Positions 31,945 to 63,291 of a stretch of DNA of 64,000 nt are shown here, one piece after another; position 1 is the first letter of the stretch, and each line of letters opens with the position of its first letter. A program made the translations under genes and the position numbers. The notes below the pieces were generated by a model. It was given only the letters and a program-made list of their open reading frames with translations, had not been told where the DNA came from and made no database searches. Source of the DNA: Bacteroidetes bacterium GWF2_29_10 (GTDB lineage Bacteria; Bacteroidota; Bacteroidia; Bacteroidales; GWE2-29-8); contig MEOD01000055.1 in the NCBI GenBank assembly GCA_001768555.1, positions 27,473 to 91,472 of the forward strand. Direction: 5' to 3'.

Positions 31945-33036
31945 TTATAAATTATTATATTGATTTTTCAAAACGAAGCCTGCTAATTGCTCTAAAGGCA
32001 ATATTTTATCTGCAGCATTTAATTTTACAGCTTCCTTTGGCATTCCATAAACAACACAAGATTTCTCATCCTGAGCAACAGTCATCGCTCCAGATTGTTT
32101 CATCTCTAATAATCCTTTAGCTCCATCGTCGCCCATTCCAGTCATTATTATACCAATTGAATTTCTGCCTGCATATCTAGCAGTTGAACGAAATAATACA
32201 TCAACAGAAGGACGGTGTCTATTAACAAGCGGTCCATCTTTAACTTCTACATAATATCGAGCTCCACTTCTTTTTAATAACATATGTTTATTCCCAGGCG
32301 CAATTAACGCCCGTCCTCTAATTATTGTATCATTATCTTCAGCCTCTTTTACGGTAATTTTACATAATTGGTTTAGTCTATTTGCAAAAGAACGAGTAAA
32401 ATTTTCAGGCATGTGTTGAACAATGACTATTCCAGGCGAGTCTCCAGGCAGGTTTTCGAGGAATACTTTTAAAGCTTCTGTTCCTCCAGTTGAAGCTCCA
32501 ACAGCGACAACCAATTCTGTAGTTTTTAACATACTGCTATTATTGTTTGTGCTAGCAGCAATAACAACATCAGCTGAGTATTTAGGAGCAACACTAACAG
32601 GAGCATTTGTAACAAAATGCTTATGTTTTATACGAGCCATTGATGCAGCTTTTACAACATCGCAGAGTCTTATTTTAGATTCTTCAAAAAACTCTTTTGT
32701 ATATAACTGAGGTTTTGTTATTATTTCAATAGCTCCATACTCCAATGCTTTAATTGCAGTTTCTGTTCCTTCATTTGTTAAACTTGAAATTATAACTACA
32801 GGAATTGGGTGTTGACTCATGATTTTTTTTAAGAAGGTCAATCCATCCATTCGAGGCATTTCTACATCTAATGTGATAACATCAGGCACTTCGTTTTGGA
32901 TAATCTTTGCGGCAAAATACGGATCAGACGCAGTATCCATAACCTCAATGTTTGGATCAGAATTAAGAATTTGGGTTAGTGCTTGTCGCACCATTGCAGA
33001 GTCATCAACGACTAATACTTTAATTTTCTTTTTCAT
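31945..33036 (-). CDS. cheB: chemotaxis response regulator protein-glutamate methylesterase CheB
   Basis: REC domain ([18 protein letters not shown]) plus an esterase triad context ([24 protein letters not shown]). Its ATG overlaps the upstream stop (TAATG). Confidence 0.9.
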
Positions 33037-34118
33037 TAATTAAAATTTTCGTTAATATTATCATTTTCCAAACTTAAATTTTGTTGTTCTTTGATATTCT
33101 GAATAACTTTTTGAAGATCTTTAACACTATCGAATGCAAGAATTAGTTTTTTGTTTTTTTCGTTTAAATCTTCTGAATCCTTTGACAACTGACATTCTAT
33201 TTTGCCACCTTTTTCTATGAAATTAAGTATTTGTTTTAATGATTTTTGAACGATTAAAAATACTTCTTCTTTGTCATTTTCATTAGTCCATCCATAATCA
33301 TTCATAAGTTCAGACACAACGTTTTCTGTAGCTTGATTTATGGTTATAGATACTTCATCTTCAAAAAGCTCCGATATTTCTTGATTTAGTTGCATGCTTA
33401 CAGTTTCGTATTGCAATTGTCTAATTCTTAATACTTTTTTGTATATTTCAACAATATTAGAAGTTCCTTTTGACAATGCTTTTAATATTTCATCACCATC
33501 ATTTATATTTAAAACTATAGCGTTTTTATCAATGTTTCTAACAATAGCATCTTGTATTTCATTTTTAGTAAGCCTGCAAAAAGACTTTAATATGTTATCC
33601 CAAATACGTGTGTATTTTTCGACATCAGTAATGTATTTAATGTGAGTTTTATCTTCAAAAAATAAGTATAATGTAGTTCTACATTCGTTTGTTTCATCTG
33701 TTTGAATTTCAATTAAAGGTGAAATTATTTGTATTAAATATGGAATTTGTTCTTCGAATTTGATTATTCCCGTTTGGATTTCAACTAGATTGTTTTTTAT
33801 TAATAAAGGATTAGCTTGATATTTGTCGAAAATATAGCTGATTTTTTCAGCTCCAATTATTCCGAAGAAACTGTTTTTTTCGATAAGCTTATATACATTA
33901 AACTTAGAATATCCCCAATCATTGGGTTCTATGTTTTTTAATATTTCAATAATTTCTTGCTTTTTATTAGCAATTTTCTCTATGTAGTCACTATTATCAG
34001 CATTATTAATAACCTCGTTAAGGTGATTAATTAAAGTTTCAAAATGATGAGTTAAGTTATTCTTCTCAATACTTTTGTTTATGTATTCAAGAACATTTTT
34101 TAAAATTGCTGTTTGCAT
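33036..34118 (-). CDS. hypothetical protein embedded in che operon
   Basis: 360-aa ORF translationally coupled to cheB (TAATG overlap). No domain was recognised. Confidence 0.5.
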
Positions 34119-34167: not shown

Positions 34168-34632
34168 TTAAAATTTTTCTATAAATCGCATTCCAACTTC
34201 ACCTGTAAAAGTGTTATATAATATTTTCCTGCCTAATTTTCCTCCAACGCTTCTACTAACAATTGGAATCTTTTCCGATTCAAGCATTTCTTTTGCTACA
34301 CTAATATTTCTTTCGCCTATTTGAAATGTATTTACTTTTGTTTCAATTATTTCTCCTCCTCCAAATAATTTAGCTTTAATATTGCTTATTTGGCTACCAT
34401 TAGATGTCATTTTTTCAATAAGCTTTATTATAGCAATGTTCCCATATTTTGGGGAAGCCAACTCTTGCCCATTCCATAATGGTAACATATAGTGATTAAT
34501 TCCTCCTACTTGCAAAACTGGATCATATAAACAGACAGACACGCATGAACCTAGTATTGTGCTTACGATGTGAGGTTTTCTACTCATAAATAAATTTGAT
34601 GGATATAAGTAATGTTTTTCATAATTTTCCAT
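34168..34632 (-). CDS. cheD: chemoreceptor glutamine deamidase CheD
   Basis: LGSCVSVCLYD (catalytic Cys context) and GINHYMLP (His). Confidence 0.8.
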   Translation of the reverse strand: MENYEKHYLYPSNLFMSRKPHIVSTILGSCVSVCLYDPVLQVGGINHYMLPLWNGQELASPKYGNIAIIKLIEKMTSNGSQISNIKAKLFGGGEIIETKVNTFQIGERNISVAKEMLESEKIPIVSRSVGGKLGRKILYNTFTGEVGMRFIEKF

Positions 34633-34641
34633 ACCATTTTT

Positions 34642-35550
34642 TTATAATATAATATTATCTTCACCAAACTTAAAATCGTCAAATTCATTATTGTCATTGT
34701 ATATACTTGTTTCTTTTTCTGCTTCAGGAATAGATATGAAAAAACTAGAACCATTGTTGAGATCACTTACTATATCTATTTTTCCATTAAGGATTTCTAA
34801 AAAAGCTTTAACTATAGACAACCCTAATCCATGACCAGGATTAATAGAGTTAATATTATTGTTAATTTTTTTAAACCTATCAAAAATAATAAGTTTATCA
34901 CTTTCAGAAATACCTATTCCATTATCAATAACACATATAGACAGAATTTTCTTTTTCACACTAACTTTTAGAGATATTTCGCCATTTTCGTTGTTGAATT
35001 TTATTGCATTACTAACTAAATTTGATAACATCAACTTTAGTTTATCTGCATCTGTGTTAAAATAAAAAGTTTTAGTATTTTCATGATTTACATCAAAATC
35101 AAATTTCATACTAATATTCTTTTTGATTGCTTCATGATTAAATGCATCAATTACAGATTGTATCAATTGTATAACATCTGTATGGTTTGTTTCCATATTT
35201 ATTTCGCCTGCTTCAATTTTCGCAGCACTAAATATGTTCTTTAATTGAAAATCTAAATTAAAAGCCTCAGAATGAATAAGAGAAACCATAGAACGAACTT
35301 TATCCCAGTTGTTCTCCTTAACAGATAGTATGTTACGAGACAATCCTAGAATTGAAGCAAAAGGATTTATTATTTCATTTGTTATGTTTGAAATAAAATG
35401 ACCTTTCATTGATTCTGATTCCTCTAACTTTTTATTAAGTTCTATAAGTTGCTTTGTTAAAGTTTTTTGTTCTTCTAAAGAAATTTTGTTTTCATTACAT
35501 CGTCTCTGTAATTCAGATATTAATTCTTCATCTGTTAATAATTTATCCAT
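34642..35550 (-). CDS. soluble histidine-kinase-like protein (coiled coil + degenerate HisKA + HATPase_c)
   Basis: N box (NLVSNAIKFN), G1 (DNGIGI) and G2 (GHGLGLSIVK) are intact. The H-box reads FISNITNEIINPF, with Asn where the phospho-His is expected. Confidence 0.75.
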   Translation of the reverse strand: MDKLLTDEELISELQRRCNENKISLEEQKTLTKQLIELNKKLEESESMKGHFISNITNEIINPFASILGLSRNILSVKENNWDKVRSMVSLIHSEAFNLDFQLKNIFSAAKIEAGEINMETNHTDVIQLIQSVIDAFNHEAIKKNISMKFDFDVNHENTKTFYFNTDADKLKLMLSNLVSNAIKFNNENGEISLKVSVKKKILSICVIDNGIGISESDKLIIFDRFKKINNNINSINPGHGLGLSIVKAFLEILNGKIDIVSDLNNGSSFFISIPEAEKETSIYNDNNEFDDFKFGEDNIIL

Positions 35551-35574: not shown

Positions 35575-36456
35575 TTAATCTTCTTCTTTTGCAAAAATTG
35601 TTGGTTTAATATGTTTCAATGGAACTTTCATATTTGTTATAGACTCTGAATGACCTAAAAAAAAGTAACCGCCTGTTTTTAATTTTGAAGCCAACTTATT
35701 TATTACACTTTCTTGCGTGTCCCTATCAAAATATATCAAAACGTTACGACAAAAAATTATATCAAAAAGTTCGTTTACACTTGAATAATTTGAATCCATA
35801 AAATTCAAACGTTCAAATTTTACTTTATTTCTTAATTCTGTAACAACTCTAACCGTCTTTTTTATTCTGTCCTTACTTTTTAGAAAATATTTAGATTTTA
35901 ATTCAATAGGAATATCTGATATTCTATCTTCTCCATAAACGGCTATCATTGCCTTATTTAATATTCTTGAAGATATGTCTGTCCCATAAATAGAAAAATC
36001 AAAATTCGGATTTTTTTTTGCAAATTCGGTTAATACAATTGCCAAAGTATAGGGCTCTTCTCCACTAGAACAACCTGCACTCCATACTTTTAAAACCCTT
36101 TTCCCTGAATAATAATTAATAAATTCAGGCAATATAACTTGTGTTAAGTGCTCAAAATGTGTAGGTTCCCTAAAAAAATCTGTTTTATTTGTAGTAACAA
36201 TATCCATAAGATTTGTTAATTCATTAGCTTGGCCTTCTTTACTAAACACATAACTAATATATTCAGCATATGAAGCAAAATTAAGTTCACTTAATCGTTT
36301 TTGCAATCGACTTTGTAACATTAACTTTTTTACGTCTGGCATTTTAATTCCTAATGTAGTATATATAAATTTACTTAATTTATCAAAATCAGCATTTGTC
36401 ATTTGTGCCTTGTAAATGTTTGATATTTTTTGTAAATCGTTTGAATATTCTGTCAT
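35575..36456 (-). CDS. cheR: chemotaxis protein methyltransferase CheR (full length)
   Basis: N-terminal helical domain plus the SAM domain motifs TDFFREP, VWSAGCSSGEEPYTLAI and IFCRNVLIYFD. Confidence 0.9.
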   Translation of the reverse strand: MTEYSNDLQKISNIYKAQMTNADFDKLSKFIYTTLGIKMPDVKKLMLQSRLQKRLSELNFASYAEYISYVFSKEGQANELTNLMDIVTTNKTDFFREPTHFEHLTQVILPEFINYYSGKRVLKVWSAGCSSGEEPYTLAIVLTEFAKKNPNFDFSIYGTDISSRILNKAMIAVYGEDRISDIPIELKSKYFLKSKDRIKKTVRVVTELRNKVKFERLNFMDSNYSSVNELFDIIFCRNVLIYFDRDTQESVINKLASKLKTGGYFFLGHSESITNMKVPLKHIKPTIFAKEED

Positions 36457-40506: not shown

Positions 40507-42300
40507 TTAAAATAGTTCAAGATTATCATCATTGTTATCTTCATCTTTTCCATCTAAAAAGGATGTTTCTTTTATTACATCGAAAACGTCAATTTGGTTA
40601 TCGTCTGAAAAGCTATCATGTATATCTCTTTCGCTTTGCATTGTATAGTGAGTTTTAATATCTTTTATATTATCCAATTTATTTCCTTCTCCTTCTATTT
40701 TTAAATATCTCCTTAAATCAAAACATATGTTATTTAGAAAAAGAACCACACTTTCTATTTCTCTCTCAAAATAATCGTAATATTTAACATTTTTTATTGA
40801 TTCTTTTAATGAATCTGATGACAAATTACATTTGCTTGAAATTTTTCTTAATATTGAAAATACTTTTAAACTTTGTTCTGTAAGGTGATTTAATGTTTGT
40901 TCCGTTTTTTTTGCTATAACTTGAAAGTTGTTACTATAAATTATCTCTGAATATAATATTGTAACATTATTATTAAAATTAGAATTATGTTGAATGATGT
41001 TGCTGTATATTTTATCTATGATATCTATCTGACTGTTTATATCTTCCAACACAAAACCTATTTGTTTATTTATTAATATATAATTATCTTTGTTTGATTG
41101 AAAATTATATAAAAAGTTCACATTCTCAATTATTTCATTGTTACATTTTATAACTAAATTAATATTAGAAATTACTTGTGAAAATAAACTTTGCAATTGA
41201 TCATATTCATTATGATTATTATTTTGAGTTAAATCTGTTATGTTTTTTACCCAAGCATAGAGTTTCGTTTTTATTTCTAAATTTAAAGTATTATATTTTT
41301 CTGTAATATCAGCATCATTATCATAAACATTATCTGCAACAGTTGTTGTATTTAAACATATCTCATCAAATTGCTGTTTTATATTATCTATTGCTGTTTG
41401 AAACTCTTTATTTATAAGCGTTAATTGAGCTACTTGCAATTCAGCTATATCGGGTATCTTATACAGATATTTTTTATTAACTTCTTTTTTATTAAGTTCT
41501 TCTATTATTTCTTTATGAGTGTCATAGATATGATCTATTTTTTGGCGTATAATGTCATGGTATTGTAAGTTTGTTATAATTTTACTGATGTTTTTAGAAC
41601 TTTTAGAGTCTAATACATTAAGCTCATTAATATTAGATATTAATTCATTCTGATTTGCAAATGTAATTTCTAATAATCCTTCTATGTCATTATAAAGATG
41701 GTTTATATTGTAAATATTTATATCTCGTTTAAATTTTAGTTCTGAAACTTTATATTTTATTGCTTCTTTTAATTTATTAGTATTGGTATCTATATTTAAG
41801 TTTTCATTATTAACCAGAAATATAATATCATAAAGCTTATTTACAATTTCATCAATATTATCATGCTTATTGTCTTCATAATATGTTGCATTTAATTTTA
41901 AATTTGTAATTAGAAATTTTAAAGTCATTAGGTTTTGTTTAAAATTTCTTAAAGGAACAAACAACATGTTTACATTTGTCTCCATTTGCTCCATAATATT
42001 CATTATTGACTCTATTTCAGTTTGAAAACATTCAGTTTGTTGTTTTAATTGATATTGTAAATTTTTTAATTGATCATGGAATTTTTCTTCATTGATTAAT
42101 TGTTTGATTTCTTCTTTTTGTTTTGCTATATTTAAAATGTCCGAATTATATGCTTTTAAATTATTGTTAAGTATAACAAAATCATTGTTTGAGCATTCAT
42201 GCATTGCCAATATTTTTGCATCTATTTCGGATAATAGATTTACTATATCATTTATTGGTAAAATGCCTGTGTTTTCTATATGTTTAACTTCTTTTTCCAA
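40507..42300 (-). CDS. hypothetical helical/coiled-coil protein embedded in che operon
   Basis: 597 aa, N/I/K/E-rich and long-helix-like, with an acidic tail ending NLELF. No domain was recognised. Confidence 0.5.
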   Translation of the reverse strand: MEKEVKHIENTGILPINDIVNLLSEIDAKILAMHECSNNDFVILNNNLKAYNSDILNIAKQKEEIKQLINEEKFHDQLKNLQYQLKQQTECFQTEIESIMNIMEQMETNVNMLFVPLRNFKQNLMTLKFLITNLKLNATYYEDNKHDNIDEIVNKLYDIIFLVNNENLNIDTNTNKLKEAIKYKVSELKFKRDINIYNINHLYNDIEGLLEITFANQNELISNINELNVLDSKSSKNISKIITNLQYHDIIRQKIDHIYDTHKEIIEELNKKEVNKKYLYKIPDIAELQVAQLTLINKEFQTAIDNIKQQFDEICLNTTTVADNVYDNDADITEKYNTLNLEIKTKLYAWVKNITDLTQNNNHNEYDQLQSLFSQVISNINLVIKCNNEIIENVNFLYNFQSNKDNYILINKQIGFVLEDINSQIDIIDKIYSNIIQHNSNFNNNVTILYSEIIYSNNFQVIAKKTEQTLNHLTEQSLKVFSILRKISSKCNLSSDSLKESIKNVKYYDYFEREIESVVLFLNNICFDLRRYLKIEGEGNKLDNIKDIKTHYTMQSERDIHDSFSDDNQIDVFDVIKETSFLDGKDEDNNDDNLELF

Positions 42301-42525: not shown

Positions 42526-45084
42526 TTAAAATCTTTCATAATCCTTATCAATTAAATCCTTGCTCATGTTTAATGTAATACCATTTCCCGTGTTCCTATT
42601 AACCTTTTGCGAATCGTTTTGATATACTTTTCCTCCAGTTTGTTTTGAAAATTTATGTTCTTGTCTTAATTTATTATCAGATGTTTTTTTCTTTAAATCA
42701 TTTTCTAGTTTAAAAAAAGATATACTTTCTAATAATTTTTCAGCTTGACCTGATAATTCTTCTGAACCTGTTGCCATCTCTTCTGATGCTGCAGCATTTT
42801 GTTGGGTAACCTTATTTAGTTGCTGTATTGCATTATTTATTTGCTCAGCACCAGATGTTTGTTCTATACTTGCTGCTGTTATTTCTTGCACCAGTTTTGC
42901 TGTCTTTTGTATTTCTGGGGCTATAGCATTCATCAAACTCCCAGCTTCTTCTGTTGATTTAACACTAATTTTAGTTAATGCATCAATTTCTACTGCCGAT
43001 GCCTGACTGCGTTCTGCTAGTTTCCTAACCTCTGCTGCTACAACAGCAAACCCTTTTCCATGTTCTCCTGCTCGAGCAGCTTCAACAGCAGCATTAAGAG
43101 CTAAAATGTTTGTTTGACGCGCTATTTCTCCTATTATTGAAACTTTTTCTGCTATTTCTTTCATTTTATCTAAAGTTTCCTTTGCTGCTAGTGCTACTTT
43201 ATTAATACCTTCTGCTGCATTTAATGCAATCTTTTCTGTTTGTTGTGAATTATCTGTGTTTTGTTGAATATTTGATGCCATTTCTTCCATAGATGATGAA
43301 ACCTCTTCTGCTGAGCTTGCTTGTTCGCTTGCTCCTTGCGACATCTCTATAGATGTAGTGCTCATTTGTTGACTTGCATTTGCTATATTATCTGCGGCTC
43401 CTTTAAAATCTTCTAATATGCGAGTGATAGATATTAACATCTCTTTAAGAGAGTGCATTAATAAATCATCATCAGAACGTTTTTCTATAGAAACTGTCAA
43501 ATCTCCATTTGCAATTAAATTTGCCTTATTTGCAATATCTTTTAACGCATCCATTAACATTATTATTGAAGGCATTAATTGATCATTTTCACACCTTTTA
43601 CCTATTCTTTTCAAATCATCGTATTCATTCATGTCGCCTTTAGCTAACTTAATTATGATATTAATAGTATGATCAACACGATCTTTAACATAATTAATAG
43701 ATTCTGCCGTTTTTGCAAATATTCCTAAATAACGACCTTCTACTTTTTTTGTATAATCATTTTGTGCCATCATTTCTAATACTTCTGATGATTCTACTAA
43801 ACCTCCCAGACCATCAATACACATGTTTAAATTATTTTTTATTTCATTAAAATCTCCATTATAATTATCTGTAATTTTTGGAGGAATATCGCCTTTTGCA
43901 ATACGGTCAACATATTCTGCCGCAACATTTAATGGACCTATTACGGCATCAAGGGTGCTGTTAAGACCATTAACAATAGGTGCAAATTCAAAGCTAATGT
44001 CATCTGTACTTGCTCGTGTATTTAAATTGCCATTTATTGCAGATTGTGTTGCATCTTTTATTTTGTCAATTATTTTTGATAAATTATAATTTAAATTTTT
44101 AATAGAAAAAAATAGAACAATTAAAATAATTAATGTTGATAATAATAAAGAAACTATCACTGTATTTCTTATTATTGCAAGATGGGCATACATATCCTCA
44201 GTATAAAAACCAACTGTAATATAGCTGTCAATTTCTTTTATATATTTAAAGTATTGAGTTTTTTCTTTACCTTCCCATTCATACAAAACTTTACCTTCTA
44301 TATTTTTTTTCATTTCCTCAAACCATTTATATTTAGCTACACTTACTCCTACAGAAGTAGGATGTCCTGTTAAAATCCCATCTGAATTAACAATATATGG
44401 ATAACCTGAACCAAAATAATTTTTTGTTGCGTAATACTTACTTATTGCTTCAAAATCTAGGTCTTGATTTCCTACATAAAGAATCCCTTTTATTTCTCCA
44501 TCAATAATAATAGGATGGTAGTTTGTTAAATACCATTTGTCAACCACAAAAGCTCTGCCTTGGTAACGTTGGCCTCTTTCTATTGATTGCACAACAGGAC
44601 TATTAAAGTCGATGAAAGTACCAATAGCTCTTTGACCATTAGCTTCAATAACATTTGTTGCAACTCTTATGTATCCATTTTCAAATTTTTGAAAGATTGT
44701 AACAGTTCCAACACCTGTTGCTTTTATTGCGTCAACTATATCAGAATTGTTTTGAATAGTTTTTCCTTTTATTGTCCATTGTTTTAGTTTTATGTTATTA
44801 ATGTTAACATAATCTTTGTTAGACTCGGTTATATTTCCAAGGCTATTAAGATATTGTAGCGCAAAATTCATATCTGAATTTACTTTTGCTTTATTTGCAT
44901 TAAATTCAAGCAAAATCGAGCTTTCTAAATTCAATATGTTTTCTTGCATACTATCGTCAGTGTTTTTTAATGTTAATTTTCTAAGATCAGAAATTAAGTA
45001 CACACCGAATGCAATAAAGACTATTAGTAAAGTACTCGCGATACTAATGTTTAGTCGTGTTCCAATTTTCATTTTTTCAAACAT
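42526..45084 (-). CDS. methyl-accepting chemotaxis protein (double-Cache-type sensor, HAMP repeats, MCP signalling domain)
   Basis: TM1, periplasmic Cache-like region ([19 protein letters not shown]...GQRAIGT), TM2, HAMP-like segments, the tip motif [40 protein letters not shown], and the terminal pentapeptide DYERF. Confidence 0.9.
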
Positions 45085-53144: not shown

Positions 53145-53540
53145 AATTTTTTAATATTACATTATTTTTTAGTTCTGCTATATAATTGCTTAATTAAAAA
53201 AACAGACAAGGAAATTAAACATCTATTAGCGATAGCAAAAATACAAATAAACCTACAATAAAACAAATTATTATTTTTAATCTATTACTGTCACATTTCT
53301 TTAAAAATAATTAGCAATTTGATGTTATTGACCTATTAAACAATAATCGAAGATGTATTTAGTAAATTTATGATAAAACTTTAAGAATGGAGTAAAGTCC
53401 TAATTATTTAGCTTTACTTTAGAGTAATTTTTATAAAATGATTATAATATAAAAATGTTTTTTAATGCATAAAAACGAAATTCTATATGAGTAAAATTTG
53501 CTTCTATCAAAATAATATTAAATTTTGTGAAAAAAATTTA

Positions 53541-53548
53541 TATTTTTG
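53541..53548 (+). promoter_or_regulatory. Bacteroidota-type -7 box (TATTTTTG); second candidate TATATTTG at 53609-53616
   Basis: TAnnTTTG matches about 108 and about 40 nt upstream of the cheR ATG at 53656. Confidence 0.3.
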
Positions 53549-53655
53549 CATTTGATAAATTATGACAATTACGCATTATAACGTATTATAGTGCTTCTAT
53601 ATAAATAATATATTTGACAAATTAAAAAAAATCTTTATTTTATAGTTTACAAAGG

Positions 53656-54483
53656 ATGATACAAGATATTGATATAAAAGAATTACGAAACTTAATCGCC
53701 ACAATTAAAGAGATTTACAGATACGATTTTAGTAATTATGCAATTTCTTCATTTAAAAGAAGGATTTTAAGAATATTGGAATTGTATAAAATATCAGGCG
53801 TAGAAGAGTTAATAACCAAAATAAAAACTAACAGAATGTTTTTAGAGGAGGTTATAAAAGAAATTACAGTAAACACAACAGAAATGTTTAGAGATCCTTC
53901 AATGTGGAGGACTTTAAGAGAAACAATTCTGCCTCAATTTAAAAACAATAACACAATAAGAATATGGCATGCTGCATGTAGTTCTGGCGAAGAAGTTTAT
54001 TCTATGGGGATTTTATTAAAAGAGGCAGGATTAAGTGAAAAAACATCAATATTTGCTTCAGATATAAATGAAGATGTTTTGAAAACGGCAAAACAAGGAA
54101 TATATCCGACAAGGACATTAGAGCTAAATATGAGTAATTACGAAAGATTTGCAGGTATTGGTAAACTATCAGATTACTATAAATTAATTGATAATAATGA
54201 AAAATATGTTTTTGACAAGTCTATATTGAAAAACGTCATGTTTAGGACACATGATTTGGTTTTAGATGAATCATTCTCTAAATTTGATATTATTTTATGT
54301 AGAAATGTAATGATATATTTTAATTTTGAATTGCAGGATAAGGTTGTTCAATTATTTGAAAATAGTTTGTTTACTGGAGGCTATTTAGTTTTAGGATCCA
54401 AAGAAACAATAGCATGGTGCAAATCTGCAAAAAGTTTCTCTGTAGTAAATGTTGAGGATAAAATTTATAAGAAGATAGGATAG
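53656..54483 (+). CDS. cheR: CheR-type protein-glutamate O-methyltransferase
   Basis: N-terminal helical domain plus TEMFRDP, IWHAACSSGEEVYSMGI and ILCRNVMIYFN. Confidence 0.85.
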   Translation: MIQDIDIKELRNLIATIKEIYRYDFSNYAISSFKRRILRILELYKISGVEELITKIKTNRMFLEEVIKEITVNTTEMFRDPSMWRTLRETILPQFKNNNTIRIWHAACSSGEEVYSMGILLKEAGLSEKTSIFASDINEDVLKTAKQGIYPTRTLELNMSNYERFAGIGKLSDYYKLIDNNEKYVFDKSILKNVMFRTHDLVLDESFSKFDIILCRNVMIYFNFELQDKVVQLFENSLFTGGYLVLGSKETIAWCKSAKSFSVVNVEDKIYKKIG

Positions 54484-54488
54484 TATTA

Positions 54489-55070
54489 ATGCAAAATATA
54501 GATTTTACAAAATATAGAGTTGTCGTTATAGGGGGGTCGGCTGGCAGTTTTCCTGTTATAACAAAAATATTAGGAATGTTAAATAGTGATTTTCCATTGC
54601 CAATACTGCTTTGTTTGCATAGACTAAAACATATACGTAATGGTTTTGTCGAGGCATTAAATATTAAATCTAACATACATGTAATAGAACCTGAAGATAA
54701 GACTATGATTAAATCTGGATTTGCATATCTTGCCCCATCAAATTATCATTTAACAATAGAAATAGGTAACTATATTTCATTGACAACGGAGGAGTTGATA
54801 AATTTTTCTCGTCCTTCAATAGACTTGTCTTTTGATTCAGCATCTTATGTTTATAAAGACCGACTTATTGGTATTATTTTATCAGGAGCAAATAAAGATG
54901 GAGCAAAAGGCATGTGCAGGATAAAAAGCAGAGGAGGCTTAAGTATTATACAAGACCCTGTAGAAGCGTCTGTAAAAACAATGCCAGAGTCAGTTTTATC
55001 AATATGCAAACCTGATATGGTATTAAAAACAGATGGAATAATAGAATTATTAAATAAAATTAAAAAATAG
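54489..55070 (+). CDS. CheB-type methylesterase catalytic domain only (no receiver domain)
   Basis: VVVIGGSAGS (Ser), LCLHRLKH (His) and LSGANKDGAKG (Asp) sit at the expected spacing. It starts 6 nt after the cheR stop. Confidence 0.75.
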   Translation: MQNIDFTKYRVVVIGGSAGSFPVITKILGMLNSDFPLPILLCLHRLKHIRNGFVEALNIKSNIHVIEPEDKTMIKSGFAYLAPSNYHLTIEIGNYISLTTEELINFSRPSIDLSFDSASYVYKDRLIGIILSGANKDGAKGMCRIKSRGGLSIIQDPVEASVKTMPESVLSICKPDMVLKTDGIIELLNKIKK

Positions 55071-55710: not shown

Positions 55711-58356
55711 ATGGGAAATGACAAAAATGACAATGTAAATAGAAAGATAGTTAAATCTGTAAAGGACGATACCATCAAAAGTGTTTTATATGGTCTTTTA
55801 ATTAGTTTTATAATAATAATAATAGAAATGTATAGTAGAATTGGTTCTATAGATTTTAGTTCTATTTTTTATGCATACCAACAAGATTCTTTATTTTTTT
55901 GGATATATATATTTCCATTTGTTCTAGGTACTGTTATGATGTTTTATTCATATAAAAAAAATAAAGAAAAATTCATATTAAATGAAAAAATAGCAGAACA
56001 ACAAGCAATAATAGCAAGAAACGTTGAATTTGCAGAAAGAATTGGCAAAGGAGAATTTGATGTAGATATTGAAATTATAGATGATGATAAATTAGGAAAA
56101 GCATTAATTACAATGCTAGACAATTTAATAGAAAACGAAAAACGAGAAGAAGAACGCAATAGTATAATTTCAATGACGTCAGATGTTGGAACTTTACTAA
56201 GAATGCATAATGATTTAAAAATTTTATCCGAAGAAGTTGTTGCATATATTACAAAAAAGATTAATGCAGTACAAGGAGCTTTTTATGTAGTAAATGATGA
56301 TGATTCTAATGATGTTTATATTGAGCTAATATCAAGCTATGCATATAACAAAAAAAAATATCTTAAAGGAAAATATAAATTTGCCCAAGGTTTAATAGGA
56401 CAAGCAGCAATAGAAAAAGACAAAATACTACGTACAGAAATACCTTATGATTATGTAACTATTACTTCTGGCTTGTTAGGTGATAGAAGACCTTCTTGTT
56501 TGCTAATAGTTCCTTTAATTACAAATGAAACGGTTTATGGAGTAATAGAGTTTGCTGGTTTTGAATTATTTTCACAAATGCATATAAAATTTGTTGAAGA
56601 ACTTAGTGATATTATAGCAAGAACTATTTTTAACGTAAAGGTAAACGAAAGAACTTTAAAATTGCTTAAAGAATCTCAAGAGATGAGTAAAGAACTTCGT
56701 GAGCAGCGAGAGCAATTACTGTTAAACGCAGAAGAAATGGAGGCTACTCAAGAGGAATTAAAATATTCAAATGATTTACTAGAAAAGCAAATACAAGAAG
56801 TTAAAAACAGCCAAAAGAGGTTGCAAGTTTTATTAGAAAATTCATCAGAAATAATTACCATATATAAAGAAAATAGAAATATTAAATATATAAGTCCATC
56901 TGTACTTACAATATTAGGGTTTATTCAAGAGAGCCTAATTGATAAAAGCCTTTTAGAGAATATACATGAAGAAGATGTGGAAAAAGTTGACAAAATGTTT
57001 GACAACTTAATAAATAGACCTCAAGAAAAACTTACTATCCAATATAGATTTAAAAGAAAGGGAGGCGATTATATATGGCTAGAGGCTACAGGTAAAAATT
57101 TAATAAAAGATCCTGTAATAAATGGGATAATATTTAATAGTCAAGATATTACTATTAGGATAATGGCGGAAAAAGAACAAAGAATGAGAGGTCAAATGCA
57201 AGCTCTTTCTGAGAATTCGCCCGATTTAATTACACGAATAGGTATTAGTGGTAAAATATTTTATATAAATCCAGTTATAGAAAAATTAACGGGTTTAAAT
57301 AAGGAAGAGTTTATCAATAAATCATATAAAGATGTTAGTTTGTCTAAAGACATGATTTTAATTTGGGGAAGCATATTAGCTGATACCATTAACTTAAACA
57401 CTAAAGTTGAGCGTGAAATTATTTTTAAAGTACTAGAAGAAGAAATAATTATGCAAATAAATTCTATTCCCGAATATGGACAAGATGGGAATATTGAATC
57501 AATACTTATTGTTGCTCATGATATTACTCAAAGAAAAATATTTGAATTAGAAATACAAAAGAAAAATAAAGATATAACTGAAAGTATAAATTACGCACAA
57601 AGAATACAAAGTTCATTATTACCAACACCTAAAATTTTGAAAGAACATATAGATTCTTTTATGTTTTTTAAACCAAAGGATGTCGTTTCTGGTGATTTTC
57701 CTTGGATATACAAACGTGAGAATATTTTATATGTAGCAGCAGTAGACTGTACAGGTCATGGTGTGCCAGGAGCTTTAATGTCATTTATTGGTCATTTTTC
57801 TTTAAACCAGATAATGAGTGAAAATGAAAACTGGGATTCTCTTAAGGAAAAAGATATTTCTATTTCACCTGCAAATATTTTAGATAAATTGCATACTATG
57901 GTACAAAAAACATTAAAGCAAGGGAACGGGGACAGTGAAGCAAGAGATGGTATGGATATTTCTTTGTGTAAAATAAATATATTAACAAAGGAAGTTCAGT
58001 ATGCAGGAGCACATAGGCCTTTATTTGTATTACAAAAAGGAGAACTTATAGAAATAAAAGGTGACAGATATCCAATAGGTGGGATGCATTATAAAAATAG
58101 GGCAGATTTTACAAATCATTCCATAAATCTTGAAAAAGGAGATAGTTTCTATTTTTACACAGATGGTTTACCTGACCAATTTGGGGGCTCTAATGGGGAC
58201 AAAAAATTTATGACAAAAAAAATAAAAGAGATTATATTATCAAATAAAAATACAAATATGAAAGAAATGAAAAATATATTTATAAGAGATTTTGAAGCAT
58301 GGAAAGGTGATTATAAACAAATGGATGATGTATTATTGATAGGAATAAAACTATAA
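55711..58356 (+). CDS. membrane sensor PP2C/SpoIIE phosphatase (TM - HAMP-like - GAF - coil - 2x PAS - PP2C), SiaA-like
   Basis: Two TM helices, GAF (YVTITSGLLG, IVPLIT, GVIEFAGF), the coil NAEEMEATQEELK, PAS repeats, and PP2C motifs (AQRIQSSLLP, SGDFPW, AAVDCTGHGVPGALMS, TDGLPDQFG). Confidence 0.8.
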   Translation: MGNDKNDNVNRKIVKSVKDDTIKSVLYGLLISFIIIIIEMYSRIGSIDFSSIFYAYQQDSLFFWIYIFPFVLGTVMMFYSYKKNKEKFILNEKIAEQQAIIARNVEFAERIGKGEFDVDIEIIDDDKLGKALITMLDNLIENEKREEERNSIISMTSDVGTLLRMHNDLKILSEEVVAYITKKINAVQGAFYVVNDDDSNDVYIELISSYAYNKKKYLKGKYKFAQGLIGQAAIEKDKILRTEIPYDYVTITSGLLGDRRPSCLLIVPLITNETVYGVIEFAGFELFSQMHIKFVEELSDIIARTIFNVKVNERTLKLLKESQEMSKELREQREQLLLNAEEMEATQEELKYSNDLLEKQIQEVKNSQKRLQVLLENSSEIITIYKENRNIKYISPSVLTILGFIQESLIDKSLLENIHEEDVEKVDKMFDNLINRPQEKLTIQYRFKRKGGDYIWLEATGKNLIKDPVINGIIFNSQDITIRIMAEKEQRMRGQMQALSENSPDLITRIGISGKIFYINPVIEKLTGLNKEEFINKSYKDVSLSKDMILIWGSILADTINLNTKVEREIIFKVLEEEIIMQINSIPEYGQDGNIESILIVAHDITQRKIFELEIQKKNKDITESINYAQRIQSSLLPTPKILKEHIDSFMFFKPKDVVSGDFPWIYKRENILYVAAVDCTGHGVPGALMSFIGHFSLNQIMSENENWDSLKEKDISISPANILDKLHTMVQKTLKQGNGDSEARDGMDISLCKINILTKEVQYAGAHRPLFVLQKGELIEIKGDRYPIGGMHYKNRADFTNHSINLEKGDSFYFYTDGLPDQFGGSNGDKKFMTKKIKEIILSNKNTNMKEMKNIFIRDFEAWKGDYKQMDDVLLIGIKL

Positions 58357-58406: not shown

Positions 58407-58973
58407 ATGATAAATAATGAAAGCATAATTGAAAGTAAAGCTATTTACGAATTTTATAAAAACATGCAAAAAGAAAATGTAATGCTTTTATATCAAGGAG
58501 ATGTAAACCAAAGCTTGCTTAATGCAATATTATCAATAACAGAAGGGAAATTAGACACAAATGAAAATGGCTCAGCAAAGAAAAGGGTTTTAAATATAAT
58601 GGTTGAATGTGTTCAAAATATATACAAACATTATGAACATTTAGAGCAAAACATTAAAAATGATTACTCTTCTATACTTATGTTAGCTTTAAATGAAGAT
58701 AAATATATAATTTCTACAGGAAATGTTATTTTTAATGATAAAGTTGAACTTATAAAAAATAAACTCGACAATGTAAATAGCTTAGACAAAGAAGGATTAA
58801 AATCTTTGTATATGGAAATCATGAAAAATGGAAAAATTTCAGAAAAAGGTGGAGCAGGATTAGGATTAATTGACATAGCAAGAAAATCTGGAGAAAAAAT
58901 AGAATATCATTTTAGTAAAATTAGTGAAACTTATTCTTACTATATTTTGGTTATAAAAATAAAAAAAAAATAA
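58407..58973 (+). CDS. SiaB-like GHKL serine/threonine kinase (anti-sigma-factor-type ATPase), copy 1
   Basis: N box ECVQNIYKH and G2 box KGGAGLGLIDIARKSG. 188 aa. Confidence 0.6.
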   Translation: MINNESIIESKAIYEFYKNMQKENVMLLYQGDVNQSLLNAILSITEGKLDTNENGSAKKRVLNIMVECVQNIYKHYEHLEQNIKNDYSSILMLALNEDKYIISTGNVIFNDKVELIKNKLDNVNSLDKEGLKSLYMEIMKNGKISEKGGAGLGLIDIARKSGEKIEYHFSKISETYSYYILVIKIKKK

Positions 58974-59007: not shown

Positions 59008-59586
59008 ATGAGTAATTTAGAAGATCTGAAAAATGCTGCTACTCCACTCAATTTTATATATAAACTTCATGAAGGAATGATGTCAAAAAATTTAAAACTT
59101 ATATATGAAGGAGATTTTTCGCAAGATATACTCAAAGCAGTATTAAGTATGACCGAAAAACAGCTAGAATCAATTGGGGAAGATGGAAAAATTAAAAAGA
59201 AAGTATTTAATATAATGGTAGAATGTTTACAAAATATATGTAAGCACACAGAAGATAACAAAATCAAAATCAACCATAAGTCTGCTATATTTATGGTTGG
59301 CTTTGAAAATGAAGAATACTTTATTTGTACAGGAAATCCAATAAAGCAGGAAAACGTAGAATTATTAAAGATGAAACTTGCTGAAATAAATAATTTAGAT
59401 AAAGAAGGATTAAAAGCTCTTTATATGGAGGTGGTTTCAAGAGGAGCTATTTCTGATAGGGGTGGGGCAGGATTAGGATTAATTGATATAGCAAGAAAAT
59501 CAGGAAAAAAATTAGAGTATTCATTTGAAGAAATGGAAAAAGATTATTTATTTTTTTCATTATTAATTAGAATACCTAGAAACTAA
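59008..59586 (+). CDS. SiaB-like GHKL serine/threonine kinase, copy 2 (tandem paralog)
   Basis: ECLQNICKH and RGGAGLGLIDIARKSG motifs. It is roughly half identical to copy 1 by eye. Confidence 0.6.
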   Translation: MSNLEDLKNAATPLNFIYKLHEGMMSKNLKLIYEGDFSQDILKAVLSMTEKQLESIGEDGKIKKKVFNIMVECLQNICKHTEDNKIKINHKSAIFMVGFENEEYFICTGNPIKQENVELLKMKLAEINNLDKEGLKALYMEVVSRGAISDRGGAGLGLIDIARKSGKKLEYSFEEMEKDYLFFSLLIRIPRN

Positions 59587-59612: not shown

Positions 59613-59993
59613 ATGGATGTTTTAAATTTAAAAGGAACTGACGATACACCAACGATAGTTCTAAATGCAGAAGAAAAAGTTTTTAATATATCTGGACGTT
59701 CATTGCCAGAAGACGCTGCTAGTTTTTATAATCCAGTTTTAACTTGGTTAGACGATTTTGCAACAACACAGAGTGGTGTAGCCATGAAATTTGAAGTAAA
59801 ACTTGAATATTTTAACACAGCATCATCAAAGTTATTATTGGATATTTTTAGTAAATTAGAAAGCATTAATAGTAATAACGGGAACTCTGTAAACCTCGAA
59901 TGGTATTATGAAGATGATGATGAAGACATGATGGAAGCTGGAGAGGAATATTCTGAATTAGTAGAATTAAATTTTACATTAAAACAGTATTAA
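59613..59993 (+). CDS. SiaC-like DUF1987 regulatory phosphoprotein
   Basis: DTPTIVLNAEEKVFNISGRSLPEDAASFYNPVLTWL and LEYFNTASSKLLLDIF motifs. Thr69 is at 59817-59819. Confidence 0.7.
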   Translation: MDVLNLKGTDDTPTIVLNAEEKVFNISGRSLPEDAASFYNPVLTWLDDFATTQSGVAMKFEVKLEYFNTASSKLLLDIFSKLESINSNNGNSVNLEWYYEDDDEDMMEAGEEYSELVELNFTLKQY

Positions 59994-60084: not shown

Positions 60085-63000
60085 ATGAGCGAAGAGATTT
60101 TAAAAGCCCTAATGCAATTATTTGCTATTATAGCAAAACAAGATATTGATGATGAATCAGGGGGGCAATGTATCAATGAAAGAAATTTTGTTGAAGAATT
60201 TTTAAAATCTCAGCTGAATGAAGAATTAGTAATAGAATATTTAATTCTTTATGATGAGTTTTATAAGGGCAATGAATCTGAAACAAAAAAGAAAAAACTA
60301 ACATCAGTTAGTGATTCTGTAAAAACTCTGGGAATATGCAAAAAAATTAATAAGACATTAGCACAAAAACAAAAAATCATTGTGTTGCTTCGTCTTTTCG
60401 AGTTAGTAAATGCAGATCGTAAGTTCTCACCACAAAGAATGGCAATAATAGATACCGTTGCCGAAGTTTTTAATATCTCTTTAGACGAATTTAATTCCAT
60501 AAAAAGATTTATTATAGAAGATGCTGATGCTTTATTAGATGTTAATGACATTTTGCTTATTAATACAGATGACAATGAAGATAAATACACAATATGCAAA
60601 CATATAAAAACAGGACAACTTGATAAGAGTTTCTTTCTACTAAAAATTAAAAGTGTTGATTTGTATTTTTGTGGATATCCAGGACGTAGCGAGGTATATC
60701 TAAATGGTTTATTAATAAACCCTAAAAGGGTTTATTTATTTGCACCAGGAAGCACAATAAAATTACCAAGTAGTACTGTATATTACAGTGATGTTGTTTC
60801 TCGATTTCTATCAGACATCAACCTAATTAAAATTAATTTTAAAGCTGAATATATAGATTATAAATTTTCAGAAGGGAATTATGGGTTAAGAGATATAAGT
60901 ATTAATGAAGAAGAGGGTAAACTAATAGGAATAATGGGAGCGAGTGGGGCGGGAAAAACAACTCTTTTAAATGTGCTTTCTGGTTTAGAAATACCTAGTT
61001 TTGGTAAGGTAACAATAAATGGAATTAATTTACATGAAGATAAGAATGACTTAAAAGGAATCATTGGATATATTCCTCAGGATGATTTACTTATTGAAGA
61101 ATTAACCGTTTATCAAAATTTATACTATAATACTAAGTTATGTTTTAAGGAATTGTCAGATGAAGATATTGAAAAAAAGGTAGATCTAGTATTAAAAAAC
61201 TTAGGTCTTATAGAAATAAAACATTTAAAAGTTGGCAGTCCTTTAAATAAGAAAATAAGTGGAGGGCAAAGAAAAAGATTAAATATAGCATTAGAATTAA
61301 TAAGGGAGCCTTTGGTCCTTTTTGTTGATGAACCAACATCTGGATTATCTTCAAAAGATTCAGAAAATGTAATGGATTTATTAAGGGAATTATCTTTAAA
61401 AGGAAAACTTATATTTGTTGTTATTCATCAACCATCATCAGATATTTATAAACTATTTGATAAAATAGTATTTTTAGATGTAGGAGGATATTTAATATAT
61501 TATGGTAACCCAATAGAAGCAATTACTTATTTTAAGAGAGTAGATCAGCAAGTTAATTGGGAACAAGGAGAATGCCCTATTTGTGGTAATGTGAATCCTG
61601 AACTAGTTTTTAATATTGTTGAAGCAAAAGTTGTTGATGAATTTGGAAATTTAACTCCGAATAGAAAAGTTTCTCCAAAAAATTGGCAATCATTTTATCA
61701 AAAATATTTTAATTGGGAGACTACAAATAAATTAAAACAATCCACTAAAGAAAAACTGCCATCAGCTTTAAACATTCCATCATGGTTTAAACAGTTGAAA
61801 ATATTTACTATTAGAGATTTATTGTCAAAAGTTAGTAATACTCAATATCTCATTATTAACTTATTAGAGACTCCTCTTTTGGCTTTTATCCTTTCTTTTA
61901 TAATAAGATATATTCCAAATAATGAGACCAATGAATATATATTTAGAGAAAATGAAAATTTAGCCCCATTTATATTTATGTCAATAATAGTTTCATTATT
62001 TGTAGGTCTTACTGTTAGTGCTGAAGAAATATTTAGAGACAAGAAAATACTCAAACGTGAACGCTTTTTGAATTTAAGTAGAAGCAGTTATTTAATGTCT
62101 AAAATAGGAATACTCTTTACATTATCTGCAATACAAATGTTGTTTTTTGTGTTAATTAGTAATACAATTTTTGGAGTTAAAGATATGTATTGGGAATATT
62201 GGCTTATTCTTTTTTCAGTATCCTGTTTTGCAAATATGTTAGGATTAAATATTTCCTCATCATTTAATTCTGCTGTTACAATCTATATATTAATTCCTCT
62301 TATGATGATTCCTCAAATGATACTCGGAGGAGCTATGTTCTCTTTTGATAAATTGAATCAATATATAGGGGGAGGCTATAAAGTTCCCTTAATAGCTGAT
62401 GTAATGACATGTCGTTGGGCTTATGAAGCATTGGTTGTAAACCAATTTATAAATAATAAATACCAAAAGAATTTTTATGTTTATGAAAAAAATGAAAGTA
62501 TTACAGATTTTAAGCAAGCAATATTAATTCCTGAATTAAAAAAAATTGCAGAAAATACCATTCCTTTAATTACAAACAAAACGGATTCTACAAATAAAAT
62601 TTTAGAAAATAATCTTAGTATATTAAAAAATGAAATAAGTAAAGAAACAAAGGCTATTCAAAGTGTAACTTTTGAAAATATTAATAGTTTGAATATTAAA
62701 GATTATAATGAAGAAGTTGCTGTATATACATTAGAATATTTAGAAAAATTACAAGCTTTTTACACACTTGTTTTTAATGAAATATCTAATGAAAAAAATA
62801 AAATGATTGACAAGCTTCAGTCAACCCCTGAAAACACACATATATTTACTTATTTTAAAGACCATTATTATAATGAAAATTTAACAGATATAGTAAAGAG
62901 AGCTCTTGAAAAAAACAATTTTGTTAAAACAAATAAGGAAATAATACAACTTAAGGATCCTATTTTTTTGGACCCTAAACCAAAAAATTTGTGGGATTAT

Positions 63001-63291
63001 CGTTCTCATTTTTATGCTCCTGTAAAATATTTTATGGGTAAAAAATACCCAACTTATTATTTTAATATAGTTGCAATATGGTTAATGATAATTTTTCTTT
63101 ATATTAGTTTATATTTTGATGGTTTAGCAAAATTATTAAATTTTTTCAGCTCTGTAAAATTCAATTTTGATGAAAATGTTCAATCAATTTCAAATAATCT
63201 TAACTTTTCACAAAAAATTAGACGAAATATTACCAATTTGAAACGATTATTTAAATTGAAAAAACTTACACAAGAAAAAAAGAAAAAATAA
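60085..63291 (+). CDS. ABCG-like ABC transporter (N-terminal accessory domains + NBD + ABC-2 permease + long C-terminal extension)
   Basis: Walker A GASGAGKTTLLNVLSG, signature ISGGQRKRLNIA, Walker B LFVDEPTSGLS, H-loop VIHQPS, and 5-6 TM helices after residue about 600. The N-terminal 260 aa are TerB-like (ALMQLFAIIAKQD) plus a possible degenerate FHA-like region. Confidence 0.8.
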   Translation: MSEEILKALMQLFAIIAKQDIDDESGGQCINERNFVEEFLKSQLNEELVIEYLILYDEFYKGNESETKKKKLTSVSDSVKTLGICKKINKTLAQKQKIIVLLRLFELVNADRKFSPQRMAIIDTVAEVFNISLDEFNSIKRFIIEDADALLDVNDILLINTDDNEDKYTICKHIKTGQLDKSFFLLKIKSVDLYFCGYPGRSEVYLNGLLINPKRVYLFAPGSTIKLPSSTVYYSDVVSRFLSDINLIKINFKAEYIDYKFSEGNYGLRDISINEEEGKLIGIMGASGAGKTTLLNVLSGLEIPSFGKVTINGINLHEDKNDLKGIIGYIPQDDLLIEELTVYQNLYYNTKLCFKELSDEDIEKKVDLVLKNLGLIEIKHLKVGSPLNKKISGGQRKRLNIALELIREPLVLFVDEPTSGLSSKDSENVMDLLRELSLKGKLIFVVIHQPSSDIYKLFDKIVFLDVGGYLIYYGNPIEAITYFKRVDQQVNWEQGECPICGNVNPELVFNIVEAKVVDEFGNLTPNRKVSPKNWQSFYQKYFNWETTNKLKQSTKEKLPSALNIPSWFKQLKIFTIRDLLSKVSNTQYLIINLLETPLLAFILSFIIRYIPNNETNEYIFRENENLAPFIFMSIIVSLFVGLTVSAEEIFRDKKILKRERFLNLSRSSYLMSKIGILFTLSAIQMLFFVLISNTIFGVKDMYWEYWLILFSVSCFANMLGLNISSSFNSAVTIYILIPLMMIPQMILGGAMFSFDKLNQYIGGGYKVPLIADVMTCRWAYEALVVNQFINNKYQKNFYVYEKNESITDFKQAILIPELKKIAENTIPLITNKTDSTNKILENNLSILKNEISKETKAIQSVTFENINSLNIKDYNEEVAVYTLEYLEKLQAFYTLVFNEISNEKNKMIDKLQSTPENTHIFTYFKDHYYNENLTDIVKRALEKNNFVKTNKEIIQLKDPIFLDPKPKNLWDYRSHFYAPVKYFMGKKYPTYYFNIVAIWLMIIFLYISLYFDGLAKLLNFFSSVKFNFDENVQSISNNLNFSQKIRRNITNLKRLFKLKKLTQEKKKK

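Follow-up and report, generated by a model that had tools for sequence, protein, structure and literature searches.

Bacterial chemotaxis has its textbook memory device in the reversible methylation of glutamate, a modification documented, to our knowledge, almost exclusively on chemoreceptors. CheR/CheB pairs or CheB-CheR fusions are nevertheless encoded in many genomes with no chemoreceptor gene nearby, and we know of no identified targets for them. The question of what such enzymes act on is raised by a stretch of 64,000 nucleotides from Bacteroidetes bacterium GWF2_29_10 (contig MEOD01000055.1; hereafter the window), in which cheR and cheB precede the gene for an 881-residue GAF-PAS-PP2C sensor. 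An earlier note on this DNA had picked out a chemoreceptor-style methylation motif in the linker between the GAF and PAS domains of this sensor, with a counterpart in a 754-residue paralogue, and had suggested such linkers as CheR substrates. The motif proves to form the core of a conserved signalling coiled coil, about 60 residues long, in which two to three Glu pairs recur at intervals of seven residues, a Leu or Met following each pair. The coil is a candidate methyl-accepting segment, with the neighbouring CheR/CheB pair as its enzymes, a reading of sequence patterns and gene order to which we give an even chance of being right.

The motif contains AEEMEATQEE, the translation of GCAGAAGAAATGGAGGCTACTCAAGAGGAA (window positions 56731-56760). 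As had been claimed, EEMEAT matches exactly the Glx-Glx-x-x-Ala-Ser/Thr consensus of methyl-accepting chemotaxis proteins (MCPs), and it lies between the GAF domain (residues 167-306 by Pfam) and the first of two PAS domains (from residue 370); the SpoIIE/PP2C domain occupies residues 674-880. The description of the coils as soluble linkers holds for the coil, which is the cytoplasmic GAF-PAS linker, but the proteins are membrane-anchored, in the case of the 881-residue sensor because its N-terminus is hydrophobic. Pfam finds no CHASE3, HisKA or HATPase domain in this sensor, the output of which is PP2C, and no MCPsignal domain in either the sensor or the paralogue. Against the NCBIfam SiaA model the PP2C domain scores 155 bits, under the equivalog cut-off of 700. 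Within the sensor's coil, Glu-Glu occupies the second and third heptad pairs only.

Strict matches to [EQ][EQ]xxA[ST] number one in the 19,231 residues of the window's open reading frames (ORFs), and shuffling each protein leads one to expect 1.03 ± 1.09. Two small residues at positions +3/+4 of an EE pair are expected in about 4-6% of cases. Significance from the window alone was therefore rejected, and the significance of the motif lies instead in its conservation. Across 66 proteins homologous to the GAF domain plus linker, drawn from Bacteroidota metagenomes, the linker aligns without gaps and keeps ...EE[LM]RQN[AM]EEMxATQEEL...; in 18 aligned diverse coils the only invariant columns are L10, E33, E34, A37 and E40, with N31 and T38 each at least 90% conserved. 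The coil profile matches 3,897 cluster representatives among 1.84 billion proteins, and the 535 coil instances found in the best 150 of these representatives share the core QEEE[LM]RQN[ML]EE[LM]xATQEE[ML]xR (E33 96%, E34 94%, A37 77%, T38 77%, Q39 93%). Among 57 orthologues of the PP2C sensor the corresponding values are E33 89%, E34 80%, A37 70%, T38 92%, E40 82% and E41 87%, and 36 of them retain the strict MCP consensus. EE..AT..EE is the most conserved stretch of the post-GAF helix. At profile position 27, the second residue of the first pair, the general family has Glu in 92% of cases, the 754-residue family has Gln in 94% and Glu in 5%, and the PP2C type is mixed (E 31/Q 28/V 31). Exchange of Glu and Gln at the second residue of a pair also occurs at MCP sites, and the che-operon family, with mostly Gln at this position, also has CheD.

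The paralogue aligns with the sensor without gaps and places its EELQAI directly opposite EEMEAT, as the earlier note had it, though its motif lies 6 nt away from the interval given there (30901-30966; Table 1). It is 100% identical to a protein of the metagenome-assembled genome (MAG) of Bacteroidetes bacterium GWE2_29_8. In 120 full-length orthologues (44-49% identity) every position of QEEQMRQNMEELQATQEEAARQ is 94-100% conserved and 115 read EELQAT, the window's EELQAI being an outlier and a near miss to the MCP consensus. Conservation of the Glu pair together with Ala-Ser/Thr among orthologues is thus found in most proteins of both types, but the central EE is lost in several orthologues that are linked to CheR/CheB. 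The paralogue gene is kept directly after cheB in related che operons (loci L213-L215), the order being STAS-CheY-CheA-CheW-CheR-HATPase-CheD-CheB and then the paralogue. A second, degenerate copy of the coil stands ahead of the third PAS domain of the paralogue (residues ~590-650); orthologues read EKLMEESQKQTEQLKIQEEKLRQSGAELSRKLE there, lacking the central EE..AT.

In an AlphaFold2 model of the GAF domain plus linker (mean predicted local distance difference test score 90.6), the GAF fold is normal and its last helix runs unbroken for 82 residues (model residues 121-202). Foldseek retrieves only ordinary GAF domains, and among solved structures no chain matches the coil sequence except designed coiled coils. 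Leu or Met at profile positions 21, 28, 35, 42, 49 and 56 form one core stripe, and the second stripe is polar, consisting of either Q24/N31/T38 or E25/[AM]32/Q39. Given the Leu/Met stripe, the Glu pairs at positions 26-27, 33-34 and 40-41 fall at f-g or b-c, and they are therefore accessible rather than buried. Burial of the pairs had been put forward as grounds for abandoning the idea; both possible registers leave them accessible, so the register does not discriminate and this objection does not apply.

Three independent lines connect the coil to methylation enzymes: conservation of the operon, the surroundings of its CheR clade, and fusion proteins. A scan of one genome per species, made with an alignment of the sensor-operon CheR and its relatives, gave 80 CheR loci (39-56% identity) from many phyla: Bacteroidota (including Chryseobacterium, Flavobacterium and Chitinophaga), Nostoc, relatives of Paenibacillus and Bacillus, Alcanivorax, Gemmatimonadota and others. 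Of the 80, 66 have an ORF, in most cases containing a GAF domain, whose coil bears heptad-spaced Glu pairs and which is on the strand of cheR and no more than 2.5 kb from it; these loci are spread over Bacteroidota, cyanobacteria, Bacillota, Pseudomonadota and other groups. Half of the 14 coil-negative loci (seven) have less than 2.3 kb of upstream sequence. Such coil ORFs number 72, with 71 within 2.5 kb of cheR, one at 2.5-5 kb and none in the ~633 kb beyond 5 kb. An MCP gene is found nearby in only one locus of the clade. Chryseobacterium, Flavobacterium and Chitinophaga are not known to be chemotactic. The operon CheR-CheB-GAF-sensor-SiaB-SiaC itself recurs on three metagenome contigs and at about 17 genome loci (45-63% identity). 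The usual partner across the clade is a kinase consisting of CHASE3, 4HB_MCP or a HAMP array, followed by GAF, a coil of ~100 residues, HisKA, HATPase and three REC domains, an arrangement also seen at plasmid loci of Allorhizobium and Deinococcus. As a detector of kinase-type coils the window-family profile proved too specific (12-26 bits), and regular expressions and a jackhmmer model were used in its place.

In metagenomes, 77 ORFs contain EELQ[ST]TNEELQ. CheB and CheR are fused in the same chain in 53 of these, the enzyme domains lying some 200 residues ahead of the coil; CheR is present in another 11, many of the CheR-only ORFs being truncated by contig ends; two are GAF kinases, and a further 11, most of them short or contig-truncated, match no CheR, CheB or GAF domain. 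The CheB-CheR fusions show no match to the window's GAF domain, which leaves the coil as the only element found in all three CheR/CheB-linked architectures. In 50 of 53 fusions the CheR domain matches the sensor-operon CheR with a higher score than it does the che-operon CheR; the CheB domains show no such preference. The feature common to all CheR/CheB-linked coils is an EE pair with Leu or Met behind it, at heptad spacing; the Ala-Ser/Thr of MCPs is not part of it. Fusion-type coils average 7.3 EE[LMIV] pairs and 4.8 broad consensus matches each, and 49 kinase-type coils adjacent to CheR/CheB average 4.8 EE[LMIV] pairs with 0.04 strict and 0.14 broad consensus matches.

Because of this gene linkage and the shared EE-[LM] heptad, the coils are the best candidate partner, most simply the substrate, of the neighbouring CheR and CheB. 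The earlier proposal thus stands in altered form. The coils are likely CheR/CheB partners, as indicated by the operon, the CheR clade, the fusions and the position after cheB, but the exact MCP consensus is not the link. All three CheR-type genes that it counted are present in the window (Table 1), together with two CheB, one CheD and one MCPsignal protein; of the three, only the CheR of the sensor operon shows a specific tie to the PP2C sensor.

We propose that the coil carries a signal from the GAF domain to the PAS and PP2C output, and that CheR would esterify one Glu of a pair and CheB would take the methyl group off. Loss and regain of charge on the flank of the dimeric helix could alter its packing or rotation, and the altered helix may reset how strongly the sensor drives its SiaA-like phosphatase, which would act on SiaC against the two SiaB-like kinases. 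The partner-switch pathway would thereby gain the adaptation that methylation gives chemoreceptors. For the paralogue coil, the enzymes would be the CheR, CheB and CheD of the che operon. A precedent is reported for PhoP, a protein that is not a receptor, in which CheR methylates consecutive acidic residues (PMC8546571).

Several results weigh against methylation of the coil. Ala-Ser/Thr is missing from the kinase-type coils that are linked to CheR/CheB, and Glu/Gln exchange at the central pair was found in none of the 535 coil instances or 120 paralogue orthologues. The central pair itself is broken in some CheR/CheB-linked PP2C orthologues, which read AEIMEAT, ASQMEHT, AEDLLKT or AVEMEKT. 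Prediction gives one single helix for the coil, which presumably pairs as a parallel dimer, as opposed to the antiparallel four-helix bundle of MCPs. No CheR or CheB is encoded within 10 kb of any of five sampled distant coil proteins, which have a short sensor-GAF-coil layout and in some cases end right after the coil; one of the five comes from the same MAG as a CheR-CheB-PP2C operon. Finally, the best 150 of the 3,897 profile-matched representatives contain no CheR, CheB or MCP domain; their layout is GAF-(coil-PAS)n, and the coil occurs as many as nine times per protein. With so many representatives, the top ones of which are devoid of these domains, a general structural role of the coil is certain and methylation is not its only reason to exist.

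In an alternative account, the coil is only a structural signalling helix resembling the S-helix, and CheR and CheB modify some other target, be it a different region of the sensor, the GAF-only protein or the MCP. The coil does lie between signalling domains in the manner of the S-helix, which has polar interface residues and acidic b/c positions (PMC1592074), and the window sensor reads N-ERT at the start of its coil. The abundance of the coil, its repetition ahead of PAS domains in proteins that neither contain CheR/CheB nor are encoded near them, and the loss of the central EE in some linked orthologues also fit a structural helix. This account leaves unexplained, however, why tandem EE heptads occur in CheB-CheR fusions that match no window-type GAF domain, and why the coil is the sole element in all three linked architectures. 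Most loci of the sensor-operon CheR clade have no MCP gene nearby that could serve as the alternative target, and the ERT triplet (residues 313-315), conserved at only 30/32/60% over the 535 instances, stands at the N-terminal end rather than in the central heptad; membership of the S-helix family was rejected for this reason. We consider a purely structural role less likely than methylation of the coil.

The same gene linkage would be expected if the coil were a docking or tethering site for CheR/CheB or another partner, in the role that the C-terminal pentapeptide has in certain chemoreceptors. A 20-residue surface that is so extremely conserved would suit a binding epitope, and some sensor-GAF-coil proteins stop right after the coil, as if the coil were the output. 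Docking would be redundant in the fusions, though, where the enzymes are already covalently tethered, and it does not account for heptad Glu pairs followed by Leu or Met that match the pairs of the window's own MCP, so we regard it as improbable. The window counts and the expected frequency of small residues after EE would suit a Glu-rich coil that fits a short and loose consensus by chance, with no link to methylation; conservation and gene linkage rule this out for the motif as a conserved, CheR/CheB-linked feature, and what probability it retains is close to nil. Modification of the coil's Glu pairs by the adjacent CheR and CheB is the reading we prefer.

Several known systems resemble the coil or its operon in part. 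Like the methylation helices of MCPs, it bears heptad-spaced Glu pairs on a long helix, each followed by a hydrophobic core residue, with CheR, CheB and CheD encoded alongside, and the central pair of the sensor meets the strict consensus. The window's MCP has heptad-spaced EEV/EEM/EEM/EEL pairs, one stretch of which closely resembles EEMEATQEEL of the coil. Unlike MCPs, the coil comes without MCPsignal, forms one continuous helix instead of a four-helix bundle, has surroundings that are not rich in small residues, and does not share Ala-Ser/Thr with the other CheR/CheB-linked coils. The S-helix, a parallel coiled coil, is about 40 residues long and has ERT as the signature of its central heptad (Anantharaman, Balaji and Aravind 2006, PMC1592074). 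Both elements are coiled coils between a sensor domain and PAS, PP2C or kinase outputs, with a polar interface and acidic surface positions, but the conserved core here is QEEE[LM]RQN[AM]EE[LM]xATQEE[LM], and at ~63 residues, between the end of GAF (residue 306) and the start of PAS (residue 370), the coil is longer than the S-helix.

A genetic parallel is the BmsA-type cluster, in which a CHASE3/GAF hybrid histidine kinase, CheR, CheB and a hybrid kinase are encoded together, as for Pseudomonas alkylphenolica BmsA and P. brassicacearum 3082-3079 (PMC8175716, citing Lee et al. 2016). The Pseudomonas cluster bmsA(3082)-cheR-cheB-hybrid kinase influences motility and the formation of biofilms through mechanisms described as "yet to be elucidated" (PMC8175716). 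It has the same CheR clade, with cheR and a receiver-less cheB adjacent to a GAF sensor gene, and in the BmsA-related kinases analysed GAF is joined to the domain after it by a Glu-pair coil ~100 residues long. Its sensor, in contrast, is a histidine kinase with three receivers and a CHASE3 or 4HB sensor domain, whereas the window has a transmembrane-GAF-coil-PAS-PP2C protein feeding SiaB/SiaC, and the BmsA-type coil is without Ala-Ser/Thr. CheB-CheR fusions of the KEGG K13924 type resemble the window in having tandem NEELQST heptads just ahead of a PAS domain and a CheR domain closer to the sensor-operon CheR than to the che-operon CheR; they differ in having the enzymes in cis, in matching no window GAF domain and in repeating the heptad 4-7 times, and the window-family coil profile matches them weakly (about 20-30 bits, with high bias). 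With SiaABCD of Pseudomonas aeruginosa the window operon shares a PP2C sensor, SiaB-family kinase(s) and a SiaC phosphoprotein in one operon. It lacks the SiaD diguanylate cyclase (there is no GGDEF protein), the next gene being a TerB-ABC fusion, and it has two SiaB-like genes, a GAF-coil-PAS sensor layout and the added CheR, CheB and GAF-only genes.

The Glu pairs of coils after GAF or before PAS domains offer a concrete, sequence-defined candidate target with named candidate enzymes. If the proposal is correct, a methylation "memory" site would exist outside chemoreceptors, and methylation-based adaptation would extend to two-component kinases of the BmsA type and to Ser/Thr phosphatase partner switches of the SiaA/B/C type, with a bearing on biofilm-related control. 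Heptad Glu-pair coils after GAF or before PAS domains might then form a widespread, unrecognised methyl-accepting class and be the missing substrates of non-chemotaxis CheR/CheB and CheB-CheR fusions, those of Chryseobacterium, Flavobacterium and Chitinophaga included, a tentative extension that we place somewhat short of even. No proposal of methylation of the coil or of BmsA kinases was found in the searchable literature, several key subscription papers lying outside it, and the BmsA-CheR-CheB cluster is the only relevant prior art found there.

Table 1. Coordinates in the window of the sensor, its paralogue, their coils and the associated signalling genes.
Feature	Position (nt)	Strand	Description and basis
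PP2C sensor, 881 aa	55711-58356	+	Hydrophobic N-terminus (presumably transmembrane), GAF, coil, PAS, PAS, PP2C/SpoIIE (SiaA-like phosphatase domain); Pfam
Sensor coil, ~63 residues	56635-56823 (aa 309-371)	+	Last GAF helix extended into first PAS; coil profile, AlphaFold2 model
Sensor motif NAEEMEATQEELK	56725-56763 (aa 339-351)	+	Two Glu pairs 7 residues apart, M-x-A-T after the first; sequence, conservation
CheR (CheR_N + CheR)	53656-54483	+	Clade found beside Glu-pair-coil sensors; Pfam
CheB, receiver-less	54489-55070	+	Methylesterase domain only; Pfam
GAF-only protein, 197 aa	55076-55669	+	No coil; Pfam, synteny
Two SiaB-family kinases (DUF6272)	58407-58973, 59008-59586	+	Pfam; NCBIfam SiaB_fam_kinase 150, 168 bits (cut-off 85)
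SiaC-family phosphoprotein	59613-59993	+	Pfam SiaC 137 bits; NCBIfam
Paralogue, 754 aa	29677-31941	-	Transmembrane, GAF, coil, three PAS, no output domain; last che-operon gene, 3 nt after cheB
Paralogue coil	30841-31026 (aa 306-367)	-	Motif QQEEEMRQNMEELQAIQEEAEK at aa 328-349, nt 30895-30960
CheB with receiver domain (che operon)	31945-33036	-	Pfam
CheD (receptor deamidase family)	34168-34632	-	Pfam
che-operon CheR, full length	35575-36456	-	Pfam
Short CheR, 201 aa	36582-37187	-	Catalytic domain only, no CheR_N; Pfam
MCP (Cache3-Cache2, HAMP, MCPsignal)	42526-45084	-	Sole MCP in the window; own Glu pairs at aa 593 and aa 768; Pfam

The sensor operon runs on the forward strand in the order CheR, receiver-less CheB, GAF-only protein, sensor, two SiaB-family kinases, SiaC and TerB-ABC fusion. 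Its CheR is 33% and 27% identical to the two che-operon CheRs and retains the invariant basic RR of the N-terminal domain. The GGSAGS, LHR and NKDG segments of the short CheB align by eye with GASTGG, QHM and GDDG of the receiver-containing CheB, the Ser, His and Asp motifs being retained. The GAF-only protein is a paralogue of the sensor's GAF domain, with which it might pair; it has no membrane anchor, and its gene is kept in place after cheB and ahead of the sensor gene. The SiaC-family protein is the presumed substrate of the PP2C sensor and of the SiaB-like kinases.

Gene content around this operon varies among related loci. A short GAF-coil protein of 456-802 residues is encoded immediately upstream of cheR in L013, L016, L018, L020 and L026, where CheR/CheB are consequently flanked by two coil proteins; the one from L018, the only example of the five analysed, has no output domain by Pfam. 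In the window, the region upstream of cheR (53145-53655) holds no ORF of 90 residues or more, and the extra GAF-coil gene is absent. In Chitinophaga pinensis, cheR and a GAF kinase gene are immediately followed by the gene for a CheB-REC-PP2C fusion (L083:10768-12594), a further physical link of this type of CheB to PP2C phosphatases. Downstream of siaC, positions 60085-63291 (forward strand) encode a 1068-residue fusion of TerB, ABC ATPase and ABC-2 permease, which could be the regulated output of the partner switch. ORFs of 1020-1060 residues stand in the same position in L002 and L014-L021, and split ABC genes in L003, with domains assigned for L002 and L003 only.

The che operon has the order MCP, unassigned protein, STAS, CheY, CheA, CheW, short CheR, CheR, HATPase protein, CheD, unassigned protein, receiver-containing CheB and paralogue. 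The short CheR is only 27-28% identical to the other two CheRs of the window. In L003 and L022 a che operon directly precedes the CheR-CheB-GAF-PP2C-SiaB-SiaC operon, whereas in the window the two are ~22 kb apart and the 754-residue GAF-coil-PAS gene sits in the post-cheB position, where L003 and L022 have the second operon. Neither unassigned protein (597 residues, 40507-42300, and 360 residues, 33036-34118, both on the reverse strand) matches a Pfam or NCBIfam model; ORFs of similar size with no Pfam match occupy the corresponding positions in L213 (611 residues) and L003 (357 residues), a likeness of size and position alone. Related che operons (L003, L213-L215) keep the HATPase_c protein (34642-35550, reverse strand) in its place between cheR and cheD. 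The H-box region of this protein is FISNITNEIINPF, with the phospho-acceptor His apparently replaced by Asn, and it may be a pseudo-kinase.

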